Shown: positions 2,030-9,416 of the stretch, in pieces
Layout: the number at the start of each line of letters is the position of its first letter
Numbering within the stretch: position 1 is the stretch's first letter
UHGV virus genome: UHGV-0145483
DNA: 10,356 nucleotides
Strand: one strand, 5' to 3'
From: a virus
Translations under genes and position numbers: made by a program
The notes under the pieces: generated by a model
Seen by the model: only the letters and a program-made list of their open reading frames with translations
What the model was told of the DNA's origin: nothing
Database searches by the model: none

Positions 2030-3088
2030 ATGCTTAATACTGTAAAAATATCCAGTTGTGAGTTAATCAACGCCGACTGCCTGGAATTTATCCGGTCGTT
2101 ACCCGAAAATTCTGTTGACCTGATAGTCACGGACCCGCCGTACTTTAAAGTGAAGCCTGAGGGCTGGGATAACCAGTGGAAGGGCGACGATGATTACCTG
2201 AAATGGCTGGACCAGTGTCTGGCGCAGTTCTGGCGGGTGCTGAAACCTGCCGGAAGTCTTTACCTGTTCTGTGGCCATCGCCTGGCATCTGATATCGAAA
2301 TCATGATGCGTGAACGCTTCAGTGTGCTGAACCATATTATCTGGGCGAAGCCGTCCGGACGCTGGAACGGGTGCAACAAGGAAAGCCTGAGGGCGTATTT
2401 CCCCGCCACAGAGCGCATTCTGTTCGCGGAACATTATCAGGGGCCGTATCGCCCGAAAGATGCCGGGTATGAGGCGAAGGGCAGGGCACTGAAACAGCAT
2501 GTGATGGCCCCGCTGATTTCTTACTTTCGTGATGCGCGTGCTGCCCTGGGGATAACGGCAAAACAGATAGTGGATGCCACAGGAAAGAAAAACATGGTGT
2601 CGCACTGGTTCAGTGCCAGCCAGTGGCAGCTACCGGACGAAAGCGATTATCTGAAATTACAGGCGCTGTTTGCCCGGGTGGCAGAAGAGAAGCATCAGCG
2701 GGGTGAACTGGAAAAGCCCCACCACCAGCTGCTGGAGACGTATACTTCACTGAACCGGCAGTATGCGGAACTGCAGAGTGAATATAAGCATCTGCGGCGG
2801 TATTTTGGCGTAACTGCGCAGGTGCCGTACACGGATGTGTGGACGCATAAACCGGTGCAGTACTATCCCGGGAAACATCCGTGCGAAAAACCGGCAGAAA
2901 TGCTGCAGCAGATAATCAGTGCGAGCAGTCGTCCGGGTGACCTGGTTGCAGATTTCTTCATGGGGTCAGGTTCGACAGTCAAAGCAGCGATAGCGCTGGG
3001 ACGTCGTGCAACTGGCGTTGAGCTGGAGACTGAGCGTTTTGAGCAGACGGTCAGGGAAGTTCAGAATTTAGTCAGTCAGAACGGATGA
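2030..3088 (+). CDS. DNA amino-methyltransferase, beta class (N6-adenine or N4-cytosine)
   Basis: 352 aa; catalytic motif IV DPPY (IVTDPPYF) near the N-terminus and AdoMet motif I FxGxG (DFFMGSGST) near the C-terminus, the permuted order of beta-class amino-MTases. No adjacent restriction endonuclease is visible, so it looks orphan. Confidence 0.85.
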   Translation: MLNTVKISSCELINADCLEFIRSLPENSVDLIVTDPPYFKVKPEGWDNQWKGDDDYLKWLDQCLAQFWRVLKPAGSLYLFCGHRLASDIEIMMRERFSVLNHIIWAKPSGRWNGCNKESLRAYFPATERILFAEHYQGPYRPKDAGYEAKGRALKQHVMAPLISYFRDARAALGITAKQIVDATGKKNMVSHWFSASQWQLPDESDYLKLQALFARVAEEKHQRGELEKPHHQLLETYTSLNRQYAELQSEYKHLRRYFGVTAQVPYTDVWTHKPVQYYPGKHPCEKPAEMLQQIISASSRPGDLVADFFMGSGSTVKAAIALGRRATGVELETERFEQTVREVQNLVSQNG

Positions 3089-3128: not shown

Positions 3129-3204
3129 GGCCCTTTAGCTCAGTGGTGAGAGCGAGCGACTCATAATCGCCAGGTCGCTGGTTCAAATCCAGCAAGGGCC
3201 ACCA
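3129..3204 (+). tRNA. ileZ: tRNA with CAU anticodon, Ile2 (lysidine)-like
   Basis: Manual cloverleaf: acceptor GGCCCTT/AAGGGCC, D-arm TAGCTCAGTGG...GAGC, anticodon loop CTCATAA, T-loop GGTTCAAATCC, encoded CCA at 3202-3204. Close to E. coli ileX as recalled. Confidence 0.85.
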
Positions 3205-3211
3205 TCACATA

Positions 3212-3288
3212 CCGCCATTAGCTCATCAGGATAGAGCGCCAGCCTTCGAAGCTGGTTGCGCGGGGTTCGAGTCCTCGATGGCGGTCCA
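3212..3288 (+). tRNA. argN: tRNA-Arg, anticodon UCG (reads CGA)
   Basis: Manual fold: acceptor CCGCCAT/ATGGCGG (C1:G72), D-stem GCTC/GAGC, anticodon stem CCAGC/GCTGG with loop CTTCGAA, T-loop TTCGAGT, encoded CCA at 3286-3288. Gene name follows Stx-phage convention and is not verified. Confidence 0.75.
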
Positions 3289-3301
3289 TTATCGGTATTC
3301 T

Positions 3302-3378
3302 GCGTTGTTAGCTCAGCCGGACAGAGCAATTGCCTTCTAAGCAATCGGTCACTGGTTCGACTCCAGTACAACGCGCCA
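3302..3378 (+). tRNA. argO: tRNA-Arg, anticodon UCU (reads AGA/AGG)
   Basis: Manual fold: acceptor GCGTTGT/ACAACGC, D-stem GCTC/GAGC, anticodon stem ATTGC/GCAAT with loop CTTCTAA, T-loop TTCGACT, encoded CCA at 3376-3378. Confidence 0.8.
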
Positions 3379-3476: not shown

Positions 3477-3691
3477 AAATACCTCACAATTCAGCAAGTT
3501 GATGATTGTCTGGCTGTCAGGGATTTTGTTAAAAAAATCCTGCATGGTGAATCCCCCTGAGCGGAGGGGCGACTGGTGACGGTATAATCTCTGATTATCA
3601 AAACGAGAATGACGCGGGTTTAGTGGCACCGGGCTGAACTCACCGGGAGGCACCCGGCACCATGTTCATGGTGATACAGAAATGCGGCTTC

Positions 3692-3716
3692 AGCCCCTCT
3701 CCGGAGGGGCTTTCTT
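3692..3716 (+). terminator. Intrinsic terminator, + strand
   Basis: 8-bp stem AGCCCCTC/GAGGGGCT with TCCG loop, followed by TTCTT. Confidence 0.45.
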
Positions 3717-3722
3717 ATGGAC

Positions 3723-3944: not shown

Positions 3945-5927
3945 ATGACATTTAAACACTACGATGTGGTCAGGGCGGCGTCGCCGTCAGACCTTGCGGA
4001 GCGACTGACACAAAAACTGAAGGAGGGGTGGCAGCCATTTGGCAGCCCTGTCGCCATCACGCCTTATACCCTGATGCAGGCCATTGCGGCGGAAGGTGAT
4101 GTCACCACACCGGTGGTGGTGCAACCGTCGGGTGATGGTGGCGCTGTTATCAGCACCACCAGCGAACCGGAATATTACTTTGTCATTGCGCTGGCCGGGC
4201 AGTCCAACTCGATGTCTTTTGGCGAGGGGCTGCCGCTGCCGGAGACATATGACCGTCCGGACCCGCGTATTAAACAGCTGGCGCGTCGCAGTACGGTGAC
4301 GCCGGGTGGTGCCGCCTGTAAATATAACGACATCATTCCGGCAGACCACTGTCTGCATGATGTGCAGGATATGAGTAACCTGAATCATCCTCATGCAGAC
4401 CTGAGTAAGGGACAGTACGGTTGTGTGGGGCATGCTCTGCATGTTGCCAAAAAGCTGCTGCCGTTTATGCCTGCGAATGCGGGTATCCTTCTTGTTCCAT
4501 GTGGCCGTGGCGATTCGGGATTTACTGCGGGGGCCGAGGGGGCGTTTAACGAAGCGTCGGGAGCGACCGCAGGCTCGTCCCTGTGGGGGGCGGATAAACC
4601 GCTGTATCATGACCTGGTCAGCAGAACCCGTGCGGCCCTGAAGAAAAATCCGAAGAACGTGCTGTTATCAGTGATCTGGATGCAGGGAGAAAAAGATGTC
4701 AGTTCGGGGAGACATGCAGAACACAATGCGCTTTTCCTTGCCATGGTAAATCAGTTCCGTACGGAACTGGCAGATGTGGCAGAGCAGTGTACTGGCGGGA
4801 CAACGGCCAGCGTCCCGTGGATTTGCGGTGATACCACGTACTACTGGAAGGAAAGGTATGCAGCGCCGTATGAGGCGGTTTACGGTGGGTATAAAGGCAA
4901 AGCTGCGCAGAATATTCACTTTGTGCCGTTGATGACGGATGAGCATGGTGCGAATGTGCCGACAAACGAGCCGTCAGAAGATCCGGACATTATCACGGCG
5001 GGATACTATGGTGCCGCGTCACGCAGTAATGGTAACTGGACGACAGCCGATCGTAAAACGCACTTCAGCTCCTGGGCGCGAAGAGGCATTGTTTCAGATC
5101 GGCTGGCAGGAGAGATACTGGTGCGAGCCGGGCGTTTGCTGCCGTTCCTGAGCGGGCAGTCTGCACCGCTGGCGACCACGCCAGCCTCCACGGGGGATGC
5201 ACAGTCTGGCTCTGCGGGTCAGACGCAACAGCAGGGTGCAGGTACTTCTGCAGGCGGTCATACTGAAGCCGTAACAAGAATGGTGGCCGGATATGATGCG
5301 AACAGTGGCAGTGGTGTATGGACAGAGCAGCAGTGGAATGCGTCCGGTGGTAAAGGCACTGTGACGGATGACAGTGGCAGGAAGGCGCTGCGACTGGAAA
5401 AACAGCCGGGTAAACTGACCTCCTGGAAGATGTTCCGTACTGTTGCGGTGGAGGAGGCAAAAAATCTTCTCAGCAAGGGGGGTGAAATTGCCGTACGGTT
5501 CAAAATTCCGGATGGAAGCGAACTGGTGAACGGACAGTTTGTCTTTGGTCTCTACTGGCCGGTGTCGCAGTGGGCGTCAGGCGCGGCAGCAAACAGTATG
5601 CTGGCATCATTCTTCCTTCAGACGGATGCATCAAATCTGAATCTTATGCACCACAAGGGCACGTCGAATGCACAACTGGGTACATTTGGTGCGTTTGACC
5701 ATAACTGGCATACGGTTGTTTTCCGCTTTGCGGGAAATAACAGCGAAAGAGTCGTTCCGGTGATTGATGGTACAGAGCAGACGGCGTTTGACCTTGTGAT
5801 GTGGACAAATGATGGCTTTACAGCAGATACGCTGACGCTGACAGATATCACGGGGGCAAAAGCGACGTATCCGGTACTGCTTGATACGGTCACAGTCAAA
5901 GTTAACGAAAGCCGGGCATCATCATAA
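3945..5927 (+). CDS. nanS-p: Prophage sialate O-acetylesterase NanS-p family (DUF1737 N-domain, SGNH esterase, C-terminal beta-rich domain)
   Basis: 660 aa; SD gggagg 4 nt before the ATG. N-terminal MTFKHYDVVRA...EGWQPFGSPV matches the DUF1737-type domain of phage NanS-p proteins; SGNH block I FVIALAGQSNSMSFGEG carries the catalytic Ser; a Ser/Gly/Thr/Gln-rich linker (about aa 400-440) precedes the C-terminal domain. Position matches the gene that follows stx in Stx phages. Confidence 0.85.
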   Translation: MTFKHYDVVRAASPSDLAERLTQKLKEGWQPFGSPVAITPYTLMQAIAAEGDVTTPVVVQPSGDGGAVISTTSEPEYYFVIALAGQSNSMSFGEGLPLPETYDRPDPRIKQLARRSTVTPGGAACKYNDIIPADHCLHDVQDMSNLNHPHADLSKGQYGCVGHALHVAKKLLPFMPANAGILLVPCGRGDSGFTAGAEGAFNEASGATAGSSLWGADKPLYHDLVSRTRAALKKNPKNVLLSVIWMQGEKDVSSGRHAEHNALFLAMVNQFRTELADVAEQCTGGTTASVPWICGDTTYYWKERYAAPYEAVYGGYKGKAAQNIHFVPLMTDEHGANVPTNEPSEDPDIITAGYYGAASRSNGNWTTADRKTHFSSWARRGIVSDRLAGEILVRAGRLLPFLSGQSAPLATTPASTGDAQSGSAGQTQQQGAGTSAGGHTEAVTRMVAGYDANSGSGVWTEQQWNASGGKGTVTDDSGRKALRLEKQPGKLTSWKMFRTVAVEEAKNLLSKGGEIAVRFKIPDGSELVNGQFVFGLYWPVSQWASGAAANSMLASFFLQTDASNLNLMHHKGTSNAQLGTFGAFDHNWHTVVFRFAGNNSERVVPVIDGTEQTAFDLVMWTNDGFTADTLTLTDITGAKATYPVLLDTVTVKVNESRASS

Positions 5928-5932
5928 CCGGC

Positions 5933-5969
5933 AAAAAAAGCCGCCAGCGGCAGGAACGGAAGCTGGCGG
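5933..5969 (-). terminator. Minus-strand terminator-like hairpin just after the nanS-p stop
   Basis: A7 (5933-5939) then 8-bp stem CCGCCAGC/GCTGGCGG (5941-5948 with 5962-5969) around a 13-nt loop; only on the - strand does a U-run follow the hairpin. Confidence 0.3.
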
Positions 5970-6066
5970 AGGTAATCCCAATGGAGAATGTAAAGAAAAG
6001 ATGCTTTCGTATATCGGTTTTTTAAATGAAAACAGTTCTCATTGTCAACCATAACGGTAAGAAACT

Positions 6067-6249
6067 ATGACATTTGTTCATCAGGTGATGCTGTACTTCT
6101 GTACGGCAGTCTGTGTTATGTATCTTCTTTCGGGTGGGTACAGGGCAGTGCGCGATTTCTGGCGCAGGCAGATTGATAAAAGGGCCGCAGAGAAAATCAG
6201 TGCCAGTCAGTCAGCCGGAAGCAAACCTGAAGATCCGCTCATTCCGTAG
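6067..6249 (+). CDS. Hypothetical small membrane protein (60 aa)
   Basis: ATG 6067 with weak SD-like ggtaag; N-terminal hydrophobic segment VMLYFCTAVCVMYLL followed by a basic C-terminus. No family recognised. Confidence 0.3.
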   Translation: MTFVHQVMLYFCTAVCVMYLLSGGYRAVRDFWRRQIDKRAAEKISASQSAGSKPEDPLIP

Positions 6250-6286
6250 TCACTTTCTTGACAACACCTTTCAACGAGAAAATCCT

Positions 6287-6577
6287 ATGTCAGAAATAAA
6301 ATCGCTGGTCACTGCTGAGGCAGTGAAGGAAGTCCTGCGCTCTGAAGAAGTCCGGAGCGCACTGAAACAGCAACTTCGGCAGAACCTTGAGGCGCGTCTT
6401 GATGCAGAAGTGGATGCCATTCTGGATGAATTGCTTGGTGCACAGCCGGAACCATCCCCGGAACTGCTTCCGGAACCACAGGCGGAAGATGTCACCACGG
6501 AAAATGGTGATATTCAGCCGGAGCCACCGGTGACGGATATGACAGACACACAACCCGAACCGGGCACAATGCTGTAA
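6287..6577 (+). CDS. Hypothetical highly acidic protein (96 aa) with Pro/Glu-rich C-terminal tail
   Basis: ATG 6287; about 22 Asp+Glu versus 7 Lys+Arg; N-terminal predicted helix, C-terminus with three QPEP repeats. Consensus -35 TTGACA at 6258-6263 upstream and a strong terminator immediately downstream. Confidence 0.55.
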   Translation: MSEIKSLVTAEAVKEVLRSEEVRSALKQQLRQNLEARLDAEVDAILDELLGAQPEPSPELLPEPQAEDVTTENGDIQPEPPVTDMTDTQPEPGTML

Positions 6578-6588
6578 CGGCGGGGCAG

Positions 6589-6623
6589 GGCCATCAGTAA
6601 AACACTGATGGCCTTTTTTATTT
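6589..6623 (+). terminator. Strong intrinsic terminator between the acidic ORF and the holin
   Basis: Perfect 10-bp stem GGCCATCAGT/ACTGATGGCC (6589-6598 with 6604-6613), 5-nt loop, then TTTTTT 6614-6619. Confidence 0.6.
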
Positions 6624-6653
6624 CCGGTAGCACAGGTCTGTCGGGGCGGGGAT

Positions 6654-6869
6654 ATGTATCAGATGGAAAAAATATCAACGGGCATAGCCTATGGTACTTC
6701 TGCGGGCAGTGCGGGTTACTGGTTTCTACAGTGGTTGGATCAGGTTACTCCGTCACAGTGGGCTGCTATCGGGGTTTTGGGGAGCCTGTGTCTGGGGTTC
6801 CTGACATACCTGACGAATCTGTATTTCAAGATTAAAGAAGACCGGCGCAAACCTGCGCGGGGAGAGTAA
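6654..6869 (+). CDS. S: Class II holin, phage 21 S (pinholin) family, dual-start
   Basis: 71 aa [31 protein letters not shown]...[17 protein letters not shown] closely matches the S21 pinholin as recalled; two in-frame starts at Met1 (6654) and Met4 (6663); two TM segments; stop 5 nt before the endolysin start. Confidence 0.85.
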
Positions 6870-6873
6870 GCTG

Positions 6874-7407
6874 ATGAGCAGGAAACTCCACTATGGTTTA
6901 TCGGTAGCCGTTCTGGCGCTGATTGCCACAGGTGCTTCTGCGCCTGAAATCCTCGACCAGTTTCTTGACGAAAAAGAAGGTAACCACACCACGGCATACC
7001 GTGATGGTGCGGGGATCTGGACCATCTGCCGTGGTGCCATCATGGTGGATGGCAAACCTGTCGTTCCGGGCATGAAGTTGTCGAAGGAAAAATGCGACCA
7101 GGTTAACGCCATTGAGCGTGATAAAGCGCTGGCGTGGGTGGAGAAAAACATCAGAGTGCTGCTGACCGAACCCCAGAAAGCGGGGATCGCGTCATTCTGT
7201 CCGTACAACATTGGTCCCGGTAAGTGTTTCCCGTCGACGTTTTATAAACGAATTAATGCAGGCGATCGCAGGGGGGCGTGTGAGGCGATTCGCTGGTGGA
7301 TTAAGGACGGTGGCAGAGACTGCCGTATTCGCTCAAACAACTGTTACGGTCAGGTATCCCGTCGCGACCAGGAGAGTGCGCTGGCGTGCTGGGGAATTGA
7401 CAGATAA
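6874..7407 (+). CDS. R: SAR endolysin (phage lysozyme / muramidase, GH24, R21-like)
   Basis: 177 aa; SD ggagag; N-terminal weakly hydrophobic Gly/Ala-rich signal-arrest-release segment LSVAVLALIATGASAPEIL; T4-lysozyme-like catalytic E...D...T spacing in EGNHTTAYRDGAGIWT; directly follows the pinholin. Confidence 0.85.
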   Translation: MSRKLHYGLSVAVLALIATGASAPEILDQFLDEKEGNHTTAYRDGAGIWTICRGAIMVDGKPVVPGMKLSKEKCDQVNAIERDKALAWVEKNIRVLLTEPQKAGIASFCPYNIGPGKCFPSTFYKRINAGDRRGACEAIRWWIKDGGRDCRIRSNNCYGQVSRRDQESALACWGIDR

Positions 7408-7501
7408 GCAGAATATTTTGCTGAAAAATGCGGTTTGCTCACACGGACGGATAACACGAAATCCTGCGAACTGACAAAAACTAAGTGAATAAAAGTAAAA
7501 A

Positions 7502-7530
7502 CCCCGTTTGTTGGCTGCAAGCGGGGTTTT
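7502..7530 (+). terminator. Intrinsic terminator after the S-R pair
   Basis: 9-bp stem CCCCGTTTG/CAAGCGGGG (one G-U pair), 7-nt loop, then TTTT; flanked by an A-run upstream, so possibly bidirectional. Confidence 0.55.
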
Positions 7531-7563
7531 GTGTTTCTGACCTTGGATAAGGCAAGGGAGAAC

Positions 7564-7746
7564 ATGGAAAAGTATAAACGAATTCTGTTGAGGTTGACTA
7601 TGAAAAACGGCCTTGAACTGAAAGCGCCTGTAACTGATGACATCAGCAGAGCACTGGCTTTTGCCATTAAGTGGGTGGCGGTCGGTGTTGCTGTGTCCCC
7701 GATGCTGTATGGGCTGGCAAAACTGGTCATTGCGTTGAAATCGTGA
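7564..7746 (+). CDS. Hypothetical small tail-anchored membrane protein (60 aa)
   Basis: ATG 7564 with SD aagggag (alternative ATG 7600 after gagg); basic soluble N-terminus, single C-terminal [28 protein letters not shown]. No family recognised. Confidence 0.45.
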
Positions 7747-7760
7747 AGGGAGGATTAAGC

Positions 7761-7892
7761 ATGTCAGACAAACTCATAACGCTGGCGAAGATCCTCTGTG
7801 TAATTGTCGGCATTTCATTTTCACTAATGCTGGTTGCTCTTTTTCTTTCCATGGCCTGGATGATGTTGTCTTCGTCGGGGCTGCTGGGGTGA
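7761..7892 (+). CDS. Hypothetical small hydrophobic peptide (43 aa), single TM
   Basis: Strong SD aagggagga 5 nt before ATG 7761; sequence [43 protein letters not shown] is almost entirely hydrophobic; its TGA stop overlaps the GTG start of Rz (GTGA). Confidence 0.45.
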
Positions 7893-8389
7893 ACATAAAC
7901 CGAATGCTTTCCGCGTTTATCGTTATTCTGCTGGTGGCCTGTGGAGCGCTGTGGATGGCAACAGACCATTACCGTGATAACGCGATTACCTACAAAGCGC
8001 AGCGCGATAACAAAGCCAGTGAACTGAAGCTGGCGAACGCAACCATTACTGATATGCAGGTGCGCCAGCGCGATGTTGCTGCGCTCGATGCAAAATACTC
8101 GAGGGAATTAGCCGATGCGAGAGCTGAAAATGAAACTCTTCGCGCTGACGTTGCCGCTGGTCGTAAGCGCCTGCGTATCAACGCCACCTGTCCAGGTCCC
8201 GTGCGTGAAGCCACCGGCACCGCCCGCGTGGATAATGCAACCGGCCCCAGACTGGCAGACGCCGCTGAACGGGATTATTTCATCCTCAGAGAACGGTTGA
8301 TGACAATGCAGAAGCAGCTGGAAGGGGCGCAGGAATATATCCGCACTCAGTGCACTAAGCTGGCTTTTTATTATCCGGAGAATGCATGA
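7889..8389 (+). CDS. Rz: Rz inner-membrane spanin (i-spanin)
   Basis: 166 aa from GTG 7889 (alternative ATG 7904); N-terminal TM then [44 protein letters not shown], near-identical to lambda Rz as recalled. Confidence 0.85.
8115..8300 (+). CDS. Rz1: Rz1 outer-membrane lipoprotein spanin (o-spanin), embedded in Rz in the +1 frame
   Basis: 61 aa; SD gaggga; signal peptide with lipobox LVVSAC; Pro-rich mature part [27 protein letters not shown] matches lambda Rz1. Confidence 0.8.
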
Positions 8390-8610
8390 AGAAATTACTG
8401 GTAACCGTAAAGCCTTTTCAGGGAACAATTCTGTTCCGTATTTTGCAGCGTGGTCGTGTTCTTGTTGAAGGTTCGTTCAGTGGTAAATGTACGCAATTAC
8501 ATTCCCGGACCTTTCAGGTGAATGCCACGAATGAAGAGCTAACCGTTGAGTGTACGATGAATGCCGCTAAATGCCGCATGGTATCCGCTGCATTACAGCC
8601 AGTGTGTTGA
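8386..8610 (+). CDS. Hypothetical small protein (74 aa, four Cys), translationally coupled to Rz
   Basis: ATG 8386 overlaps the Rz stop (ATGA); no TM segment; no family recognised. Confidence 0.45.
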
Positions 8611-8808: not shown

Positions 8809-9009
8809 TCATTTCTCGTTATTTTTCATGCTGGCCGGGCGCAGATGCGTTGCATCTGTTGCCAGCCTTCTCCTGCAGGCTTCAATAACCCACGCTGAAA
8901 AGTTACCGGACCCTTTATGCTCAAGGGCGATGTTGATTTGTTCAATTATGTGATTGGGGAAACGGATATTGCGGGTTGTGGTTCTGCGGGTCCGGTTTTT
9001 CGATGACAT
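8809..9009 (-). CDS. YlcI/YnfO-like small protein (DUF3950-type), possible ribbon-helix-helix DNA binder
   Basis: Minus-strand ATG at 9007-9009 with SD aagga 7 nt upstream; 66 aa MSSKNRTRRTTTRNIRFPNHIIEQINIALEHKGSGNFSAWVIEACRRRL has a basic N-tail, a beta-strand and two helices typical of RHH-like proteins. A small minus-strand gene of this family sits between Rz and the terminase in DLP12-type prophages (from memory). Confidence 0.5.
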   Translation of the reverse strand: MSSKNRTRRTTTRNIRFPNHIIEQINIALEHKGSGNFSAWVIEACRRRLATDATHLRPASMKNNEK

Positions 9010-9050
9010 ATTTATTTCCTTTACTGATTGCCATATGACGGGGATTTTAC

Positions 9051-9416
9051 ATGGCTCAGCTTCGTACACTCCAGAGCAGAATCAAAACACTGAATACCCG
9101 ACGGGTGAATATTCTGAAGGGGGAGCAGCGTCGTGTCAGTGGCAGTGCACGTGTTTCCCTCAAGCGTCATATCTGGCTGAGGGACGCCGGGCAGTGCTGT
9201 ATCTGTGGTCGTGTGGTTGACCTCTGTGACAGTGAACTCGATCACCGAATTGCACTTCAGTTCGGTGGTGGTAATGAGGAGACGAATCTCTGGACGCTCT
9301 GTACCGAATGCCATCGACAAAAGTCTGCTCGTGAAGCGGCGGGTGGTATGCCGGACCCGACGCTGCCGGAGGTGTCCGGAGGTAGTGGCAGAGCGGACGA
9401 CATCATCGGACTGTAA
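9051..9416 (+). CDS. HNH endonuclease (phage packaging-associated)
   Basis: 121 aa; motifs CCICGR...DLCDSELDHRIALQFGG...NLWTLCTECHRQK give two Cys pairs plus HN...H; sits directly upstream of the terminase genes as in HK97-like packaging modules. Confidence 0.8.
   Translation: MAQLRTLQSRIKTLNTRRVNILKGEQRRVSGSARVSLKRHIWLRDAGQCCICGRVVDLCDSELDHRIALQFGGGNEETNLWTLCTECHRQKSAREAAGGMPDPTLPEVSGGSGRADDIIGL

Follow-up and report, generated by a model that had tools for sequence, protein, structure and literature searches.

What are two short open reading frames (ORFs) doing between the endolysin gene R and the spanin gene Rz, which overlap one another in other lambdoid prophages? The question is raised by a 10,356-nt stretch of the virus genome UHGV-0145483 (hereafter the window, meaning the whole stretch analysed), in which R and Rz are set apart by a spacer with a terminator hairpin and by two ORFs, here called ORF1 and ORF2, for peptides of 60 and 43 amino acids (aa). 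Both are genuine genes for single-helix membrane peptides. They form no obligate pair and represent one combination from a shuffling set of mini-genes, for which a role in tuning lysis is tentatively proposed below. The elements of the junction are the following.

7408..7563, plus strand: non-coding spacer of 156 nt, 3' of R, which accompanies ORF1 and other small ORFs in relatives
7498..7530, plus strand: intrinsic terminator hairpin, potentially bidirectional (14-bp stem, A-tract before it, T-tract after it)
7564..7746, plus strand: ORF1, a predicted 60-aa tail-anchored inner-membrane peptide (ATG 7564, TGA 7746; PHROG matches, substitution pattern, homologues, profile search, AlphaFold2)
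7748..7753, plus strand: Shine-Dalgarno sequence of ORF2, GGGAGG, 7 nt before the ATG (sequence)
7761..7892, plus strand: ORF2, a 43-aa single-pass peptide, predicted N-in (ATG 7761, TGA 7892; PHROG 4906, alignments, substitution pattern, homologue XECs191, AlphaFold2)
7889..7892, plus strand: GTGA junction, in which the ORF2 stop overlaps the Rz GTG start (sequence)

Chance ORFs of this size are common, and 127 ORFs of at least 30 aa are present in the window. ORF1 and ORF2 go beyond chance because of their matches to hidden Markov models (HMMs) of phage protein families, their substitution patterns, their prevalence in genomes and the ribosome footprints on an ORF2 homologue. The presence of two small ORFs behind a strong terminator, as given in the original prediction, is borne out by the sequence, by the hairpin and by the PGAP annotation of near-identical Escherichia coli genomes and of the phage PhiR12_1, where both ORFs are called as hypothetical proteins at the same positions. 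ORF1 has full-length HMM matches to PHROGs 1115, 4493 and 3246 (E 1.4e-42, 2.6e-30 and 4.5e-19, respectively) and ORF2 to PHROG 4906 (E 2.1e-23), all of them families of unknown function. Among 17 DNA variants of ORF1, synonymous diversity (pS) is 0.096 and nonsynonymous diversity (pN) is 0.011, which gives a pN/pS of 0.12; variable sites fall on the three codon positions as 3/3/14, the constraint is even along the gene (0.00-0.19), and the other sense frames of the region have pN/pS values of 1.1-1.9. For ORF2 (17 DNA variants), pN/pS is 0.63 overall and 0.43 after removal of frameshifted variants, with 0.18 in codons 1-24 and 0.93 in codons 25-43. Two antisense ORFs lie opposite these genes. 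One of them (7350-7730, minus strand, 126 aa) has a pN/pS of 0.20 that stems from third positions in common with ORF1; it crosses the terminator, its ends are not conserved, and we regard it as a shadow of ORF1. The other (7727-7969, minus strand) encodes 80 aa opposite the ORF1/ORF2 region.

By DNA search, ORF1 was found in 1598 of 5426 complete E. coli genomes, at 1913 places, and ORF2 in 1750 of them, at 4658 places and up to 11 times per genome, so that the two families are carried by 29-32% of these genomes. Translation has been recorded for an ORF2 homologue, XECs191, which is among the 465 translated intergenic ORFs identified in E. coli O157:H7 Sakai by ribosome profiling (Ribo-seq) (Hücker et al. 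2017, PMC5597208). In LB medium, XECs191 had an RNA RPKM (reads per kilobase per million mapped reads) of 30.0, a footprint RPKM of 12.6, a ribosome coverage value (RCV) of 0.43 and a coverage of 0.55, which pass the thresholds of that study (1, 0.25 and 0.5; PMC5597208) narrowly and with the caveat of multi-copy mapping.

The layout of both peptides agrees with what had been proposed for them, namely, a tail-anchored ORF1 product with a basic N-terminus and an ORF2 product that is almost entirely transmembrane (TM) helix. ORF1 appears to begin with a basic helix, which an MKNG turn and an acidic linker connect to a long TM helix at the C-terminus. Its residues 1-29 include 7 Lys/Arg versus 4 Asp/Glu, its hydrophobic stretch spans residues 30-58, and the AlphaFold2 model has helices at residues 2-15 and 22-59, with the linker at the conserved MKNG (mean predicted local distance difference test score, pLDDT, 77, and about 90 over the last 30 residues). 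The hydrophobic stretch has a moderate hydrophobicity and a high content of Ala, Gly and Val; G41, S45, Y49 and G50 are conserved in it. For ORF2, AlphaFold2 yields a single helix at residues 2-38 (pLDDT 89), and K4 and K10 near the N-terminus lead us to predict an N-in orientation. The N-terminal half of ORF2 (SDKLI...VIVGISFS), including the VGISFS face, is conserved and its C-terminal half is variable; K4, V16, S19, F20, W33 and L36 are invariant in an alignment of 19 sequences.

Good ribosome-binding sites had been claimed for both ORFs. This is correct for ORF2, whose site is near-perfect, but less so for ORF1, whose weaker GGGAG (7556-7560) is just 3 nt from the ATG. Likewise, the start of ORF1 at 7564 stands, but the start of the region at 7531 probably does not: GTG 7531 is the first codon of the longest possible ORF1 frame and is probably a longest-ORF artefact, because it lies inside the U-tract of the terminator and has no ribosome-binding site. 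A second in-frame start, ATG 7600 (M13), is preceded by GAGG at 6 nt and would produce a 48-aa form, which is the one listed in many databases. The purine motif in front of M13 is GGAGG in diverged Salmonella relatives despite different amino acids (LLRLT versus SVEAN), and in L172 (3055) and L174 (2856) the Shine-Dalgarno-like GAGG/GGAGG is at 5-6 nt. The retention of this motif where codons differ suggests two products of 60 and 48 aa from the ORF1 gene, loosely similar to the dual starts of holin genes. Since the KY(K/R)RI motif upstream of M13 is also kept in the protein sequences of the most distant relatives, both starts (7564 and 7600) may be in use.

Neither peptide could be linked to a characterized protein, in line with the original statement that the sequences were not recognized. 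Searches of Pfam, NCBIfam, PADLOC and the Protein Data Bank (PDB) gave no match for ORF1 or ORF2, profile searches of PDB included, which leaves only the PHROGs mentioned above and, for the ORF2 family, XECs191. The PADLOC defence HMMs also had zero matches to six other peptides of such junctions (E up to 1). All named database homologues are hypothetical proteins of Escherichia or Salmonella. An ORF1 profile run against 1.84 billion cluster representatives retrieved 18 matches, all small enterobacterial peptides that provide no functional lead, and in species-representative genomes no ORF1 relative was found, the only matches being chance ones in Clostridia and Lutibacter. ORF1 and ORF2 are not members of the holin families of Pfam and PHROG, to which the holin of the window itself does belong (PF04971); they have neither the periplasmic domain nor the lipobox of spanins; and the features of the DUF2730 releasins are absent from both (no Pfam match and a different layout). 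A full-text literature search found no description of the peptide sequences or of an array at the R-Rz junction, the only prior record being the bare listing of XECs191. Published work on prophage Pas and anti-small RNAs concerns other prophage positions. The genes are already catalogued as hypothetical proteins; what is undescribed, as far as we could find, is the combinatorial array of one-helix peptides at the endolysin-spanin junction and its breadth in E. coli.

Comparison of this junction across lambdoid and Stx (Shiga toxin) prophages shows a variable slot. In the Qin and DLP12 prophages of E. coli K-12, R overlaps Rz and no such small ORF is present. In VT2-Sakai and PA28, the order is R, spacer, ant, ORF2 homologue and Rz, which confirms the claim that other cargo can occupy this site in Stx phages. 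In TL-2011c, another small one-helix ORF comes after the same spacer and terminator; it ends with ...GQIRWW 1 nt before the Rz ATG. Three Salmonella loci have an ORF1 relative directly before Rz and no ORF2: after ant in L168, after a GH19-type endolysin accompanied by a lambda-S-type holin in L169, where a copy of the spacer and hairpin is still recognizable, and after a lysozyme with another holin type in L171. Overall, ORF1 relatives usually, and ORF2 relatives always, are found between endolysin and Rz on the late-gene strand.

We classified 267 R-Rz junctions by peptide type, where A is ORF1, B is ORF2, A' is a truncated ORF1, and C, D, E, F and G are other peptides. The related loci were the best 80 matches per search; near-identical loci dominate in this query-biased sample, and the counts are not frequencies. 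The A-B arrangement of the window was seen in 139 loci, D in 54, E-B-A'-C in 25, C in 15, A in 11 and A-C in 7; A-B-A-C and F-A-G-C were found in 4 loci each, ant-B in 3, and ant-A and E-B in a single locus each, with none of these types recognized in the remaining 3. At least five families of small one-helix ORFs contribute to the junction, which contains 1-4 of them at a time and in at least 11 arrangements. Type A is related to the ...IRWW peptides of type C and to the Salmonella copies (z 6-19), types D and E are related to each other (z 14.6; PHROG 6632), and type F corresponds to PHROG 12997. Types F and G have no relatives among the other junction types. Four tandem one-helix ORFs occupy the junction of L182 (R stop +78 to +641), about 25 similar loci and L207.

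ORF1 and ORF2 had also been presented as a possible functional pair, a suggestion that these comparisons speak against. The two peptides are not paralogues (Smith-Waterman z 1.5; 81 of 1000 shuffles score as well), and they occur independently, at 1913 and 4658 places. In E. coli, ORF1 is nearly always accompanied by ORF2 (spacer, ORF1 and ORF2 together in 990 genomes versus 1044 for ORF1 alone, at a coverage of at least 80%); for ORF2, the converse is not true. Derivation of ORF2 from a duplicated TM segment of Rz or of the holin was rejected: its similarity to the N-terminus of Sakai Rz is marginal (z 2.8 over 7 residues), and neither peptide is significantly similar to S21 (z 2.0 for ORF1 and -0.7 for ORF2).

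The window is the late part of a prophage that is lambdoid and resembles Stx phages but has no stx. It encodes, in this order, ninG, rusA, Q, a DNA methyltransferase, three tRNAs, a match to STnc100, an esterase, the holin and R, followed by ORF1, ORF2, Rz with the embedded Rz1, a 74-aa ORF, an HNH endonuclease and the small terminase subunit. The segment 7408-7892 is 100% identical in PhiR12_1 (PV340549), which forms plaques on K-12 (MG1655), and in several E. coli chromosomes. The core lysis genes on either side of the junction are as follows, where SAR stands for signal-anchor-release.

6654..6869, plus strand: S21-type class II (pin)holin with a dual start, M1/M4 (Pfam PF04971, E 1e-34)
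6874..7407, plus strand: endolysin R, a lysozyme with a weakly hydrophobic SAR-like N-terminal segment (Pfam PF00959, E 3e-23; hydropathy of residues 9-27)
7889..8389, plus strand: Rz i-spanin (Pfam PF03245, E 1e-50; PHROG 13)
8115..8300, plus strand: Rz1 o-spanin lipoprotein within Rz, lipobox LVVSAC (ORF translation; homologous Rz1 annotated in VT2-Sakai)

The spacer between R and ORF1 is 87-95% identical in many Stx phages. Its predicted fold is dominated by the terminator hairpin (about -20 kcal/mol), and more than 20 variants of the sequence, some of them with another inner stem, retain this hairpin at about -10 to -21 kcal/mol. The diversity of the spacer (0.052) is at least that of ORF1 third positions (0.035), so that, beyond the hairpin, it appears to be unconstrained. 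No Rfam family was detected in the ORF1/spacer region; the only hit for 7408-7563 with E up to 1, a minus-strand match to the rimP leader (27.5 bits, E 0.44), was dismissed as hairpin-driven. A scan limited to sigma-70 consensus sites found no promoter on the plus strand of 7408-7892. Promoter-like sites in the region number 2, versus 2.2 expected from shuffled sequences, and one of them, a 9/12 match on the minus strand (7600-7571) inside the 5' end of ORF1, is at chance level. The Q-modified RNA polymerase of lambdoid phages reads through terminators. Given the strong terminator upstream and the lack of a detected promoter after it, ORF1 and ORF2 would be transcribed only by this terminator-resistant polymerase, late in lytic growth, along with S, R and Rz. 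The location of the two genes in the lysis cassette and on the late strand is observed directly; their late expression is inferred only.

These data allow a judgement on the proposal that the junction behaves as a moron slot (Juhala et al. 2000). An insertion slot it is: genes that are neighbours in related phages are parted here by extra DNA, R and Rz overlapping in Qin and DLP12, and the contents vary over at least 11 arrangements. The classical moron is another matter, since the same scan of 7408-7892 found no promoter belonging to the small genes and the sole terminator of the junction is upstream of ORF1, not downstream.

The GTGA overlap between ORF2 and Rz is real as well, although PGAP places the Rz start at ATG 7904. 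GTG 7889 (VN[IN]R...) is the better candidate when Sakai Rz (MNR...) is compared: GTG-AAC-(ATA-AAC)-CGA of the window aligns with the ATG-AAC-CGT start of Sakai Rz, keeping the Arg before the TM segment. In the window, Rz lacks a good ribosome-binding site of its own. Together with the strong site of ORF2, the overlap and the analogous TGGTGGTGAnATG in other junction peptides, this suggests that ribosomes may be relayed from ORF2 to Rz. TGGTGGTGAnATG closes peptides of types C and D in at least 120 loci, and a search for the junction pattern of ...RWW, stop codon and ATG returned at least 120 viral contigs. In the E-B-A'-C arrays, ORF2 ends with the same GGGGTGA, and the frame opened by its GTG continues as an ORF1 truncated to 40 codons, so this junction sequence is common to ORF2-Rz in the window and to ORF2-truncated ORF1 in other loci.

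What, then, could the peptides do? Our tentative preference, one that may well prove wrong, is that they act in the inner membrane as late accessory peptides and adjust when, or how efficiently, the membrane steps of lysis take place. Unrelated one-helix peptides from a modular, fast-shuffling mini-gene set occupy the endolysin-spanin junction in lambdoid prophages of E. coli and Salmonella, including Stx phages; according to this scheme, they would be transcribed late and Q-dependently with S, R and Rz, and ORF2 would hand ribosomes on to Rz. The conserved small-residue faces of the helices (AVGVAVS...YG in ORF1, VGISFS in ORF2) might bind other membrane helices or perturb the membrane, which would shift the moment of pinholin triggering, SAR endolysin release or spanin action. 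The peptides would not be part of the core lysis machinery; they would adjust lysis timing and be dispensable. This reading draws on their position, strand and predicted late timing, on known precedents and on dispensability, which follows from the direct R-Rz overlap in Qin and DLP12; we also count in its favour that a plaque-forming phage, PhiR12_1, carries both genes. A bolder version, in which the junction would be an undescribed, fast-recombining repertoire (at least five families, 1-4 genes per phage) of trans-acting lysis regulators that set strain-specific lysis time, burst size and Shiga toxin release, seems doubtful to us.

Several observations weigh against a function in lysis. ORF1 relatives co-occur with three holin families and two endolysin families, and others are found far from any lysis genes, among the tail-fibre genes of Salmonella prophages (two tandem paralogues in L174, 2805-3168; L172 and L173, 3001-3201), which indicates that they do not depend on one specific lysis partner. 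ORF2 is frameshifted in 8 of 175 loci, some ORF1 copies are truncated or frameshifted, and the C-terminal half of ORF2 is nearly neutral; the decay of these copies would fit weak or conditional selection. Expression in lysogens is still conceivable given that the promoter scan covered only sigma-70 consensus sites, and the RNA and footprint signal of XECs191 came from uninduced cultures, where it could reflect either spontaneous induction or an undetected promoter.

The mobility of ORF1 would also make sense if the peptides were accessory cargo (morons in the loose sense) that acts on a target in the host inner membrane, for example, by blocking the DNA entry of other phages or by favouring host or phage in some other way, with the junction merely tolerating insertions. 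ORF1 relatives move among unrelated late-operon sites and among phages whose lysis proteins differ, which fits a portable function and a host target. The tail-fibre members of the family, each with a terminator hairpin about 30 nt upstream and, in L172, with a further terminator behind it, look like self-contained cassettes. The unrelated gene ant uses the same slot, the mosaic, duplicated and rapidly turning-over array resembles arms-race loci, and XECs191 was transcribed and bound by ribosomes without induction; a precedent is the HK97 gp15 moron, a small inner-membrane protein of superinfection exclusion. On the other hand, lysogenic-conversion genes normally have their own promoter, and here none was detected and the terminator is on the wrong side; neither PADLOC nor any other defence family was matched, and ORF2 relatives were never seen away from the junction. 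We consider cargo of this kind rather unlikely.

The ribosome relay could also be the whole story, the peptides having little function of their own. Under this explanation, the small ORFs would reload ribosomes for Rz after the terminator-bearing spacer had broken an ancestral R-Rz coupling, and the hydrophobicity of the peptides would be incidental, or else a legacy of membrane-protein gene fragments. Every junction that parts R from Rz does contain a small ORF ending 0-19 nt from the Rz start, and the conserved codons of RWW and the stop (TGGTGGTGA) double as a Shine-Dalgarno-like sequence. The poor ribosome-binding site of Rz in the window, the near-neutral C-terminal half of ORF2 and the frequent frameshifted and truncated copies point the same way. 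However, ORF1 is under strong amino-acid constraint over its whole length, is conserved where no Rz follows and, in the window, is not adjacent to Rz; the ORF2 helix keeps its six invariant residues; the 2-4 tandem ORFs are not accounted for; and the likeness of ORF2 to Rz N-termini is marginal. An exclusive relay role is poorly compatible with ORF1 and fits the C-terminal half of ORF2 better, and as an account of the junction we regard it as unlikely.

Small membrane toxins or a type I toxin-antitoxin system, with an antisense RNA running from minus-strand 7600-7571 to the bidirectional hairpin, are improbable: the peptides are indeed small and hydrophobic, the 9/12 minus-strand site faces a hairpin whose other side has an A-tract, and ORF1 relatives in three contexts are all located about 30 nt after a hairpin, but promoter-like sites are no more numerous than in shuffled sequences, synonymous diversity is the same in ORF1 codons 1-12 (0.094) as in the remaining codons and gives no sign of an overlapping constrained RNA, there is no sense-strand promoter or Rfam match, and the ORF1 helix is C-terminal to a 30-aa soluble part, unlike the toxins Hok, Ldr, Ibs and TisB. 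The toxin and abortive-infection functions put forward in the original prediction, and a defence role, find no support in PADLOC, in a dedicated promoter or in any trace of an antisense RNA.

The preferred assignment to lysis tuning would matter because lysis timing sets burst size and, in Stx phages, also when and how much toxin is released. If it is correct, the peptides, which are carried by about one-third of complete E. coli genomes and often in many copies each, would constitute a new and highly variable layer of control in a medically important group of phages. As natural one-helix membrane binders they would be a tractable set, and PhiR12_1, with its identical segment, allows direct testing. 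Should they prove to be relays or cargo, the finding would be an ordinary one, yet a recombination hotspot would be on record and thousands of hypothetical proteins would be better annotated.

Several other features of the window were recorded. The DNA methyltransferase gene (2030-3088) is upstream of three tandem tRNA genes (3129-3375, plus strand; Ile, Arg and Arg according to the annotation of a near-identical prophage). This is the site where Stx phages have tRNAs upstream of stx; the stx genes are absent here. A full-length match to the STnc100 small RNA (sRNA) of Rfam (3513-3722, plus strand; 158.8 bits, E 2e-36) lies 3' of the tRNA genes and 5' of the esterase gene, whose product is of the SASA/NanS-p type. 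The esterase-holin intergenic region (5928-6653) has a strong terminator-like hairpin at 6587-6615; it corresponds in position to the prophage Pas sRNAs (PasA/PasC), which a 2026 preprint places between the sialate esterase gene and the holin-lysozyme operon. R directly follows S in the window; in close relatives the S-R junction is another slot, where a YdfR/DUF1327 gene and an antisense DUF1823-type ORF are inserted between holin and lysozyme (L001, 4807-5389; L296, 6138-6855). Downstream of Rz, the ATG of the non-hydrophobic 74-aa ORF (8386-8610, plus strand) overlaps the Rz stop (ATGA). This ORF partially matches PHROG 2571, of unknown function (E 1.6e-27), and follows Rz in about one-third of the related loci sampled. 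A divergent 86-aa ORF (8809-9069, minus strand) is located between the lysis and packaging genes in a YlcI/YnfO-like position, and the HNH endonuclease gene (9051-9416, plus strand) is directly 5' of the gene for the small terminase, as is typical of HNH-terminase arrangements.

Among known systems, the closest parallel in position and proposed role is LysA of phage P2, reportedly described by Ziermann et al. in 1994 as a non-essential membrane protein that affects lysis timing and whose gene lies between the endolysin and spanin genes. The likeness ends there, as LysA is larger, has several TM segments, shows no sequence similarity to ORF1 or ORF2 and belongs to an unrelated cassette. In phage 21, the S21 71 antiholin is made from the holin gene itself, with an N-terminal extension, and regulation proceeds through contacts of TM helices with small-residue motifs. 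The TMD1/TMD2 (TM domains 1 and 2) system of this pinholin comes from the same type of cassette as that of the window and uses the kind of small-residue helix contacts proposed here for ORF1 and ORF2, but the latter are separate genes with no significant similarity to S21. HK97 gp15, which Cumby et al. are said to have characterized in 2012 as a superinfection-exclusion moron expressed from the prophage with its own promoter and terminator, resembles ORF1 and ORF2 in being a small single-pass inner-membrane protein encoded by extra DNA between conserved lambdoid late genes; it differs in that no promoter was detected here and in the absence of sequence similarity.

Accessory membrane proteins of lysis cassettes include P2 LysA, P1 LydB and the Mu gp25 releasin. 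The releasin (DUF2730) is small, membrane-tethered, expressed late and encoded near SAR endolysin and spanin genes, and it is accessory to the SAR endolysin's release; it has an N-terminal TM domain in N-out/C-in orientation and an acidic cytoplasmic domain of about 70 aa (PMC9239132). ORF1 has the opposite layout, with a basic N-terminus and a C-terminal TM domain, ORF2 has no soluble domain, and neither matches DUF2730. XECs191 was reported as a catalogue entry with no function, context or link to a lysis cassette, and its start was called 6 codons upstream; it is a direct homologue of ORF2 (MMGWLMISDKLITLVKSLCVLVGISF...), it resides in a lambdoid prophage, and its authors also predicted a single inner-membrane TM helix (PMC5597208).

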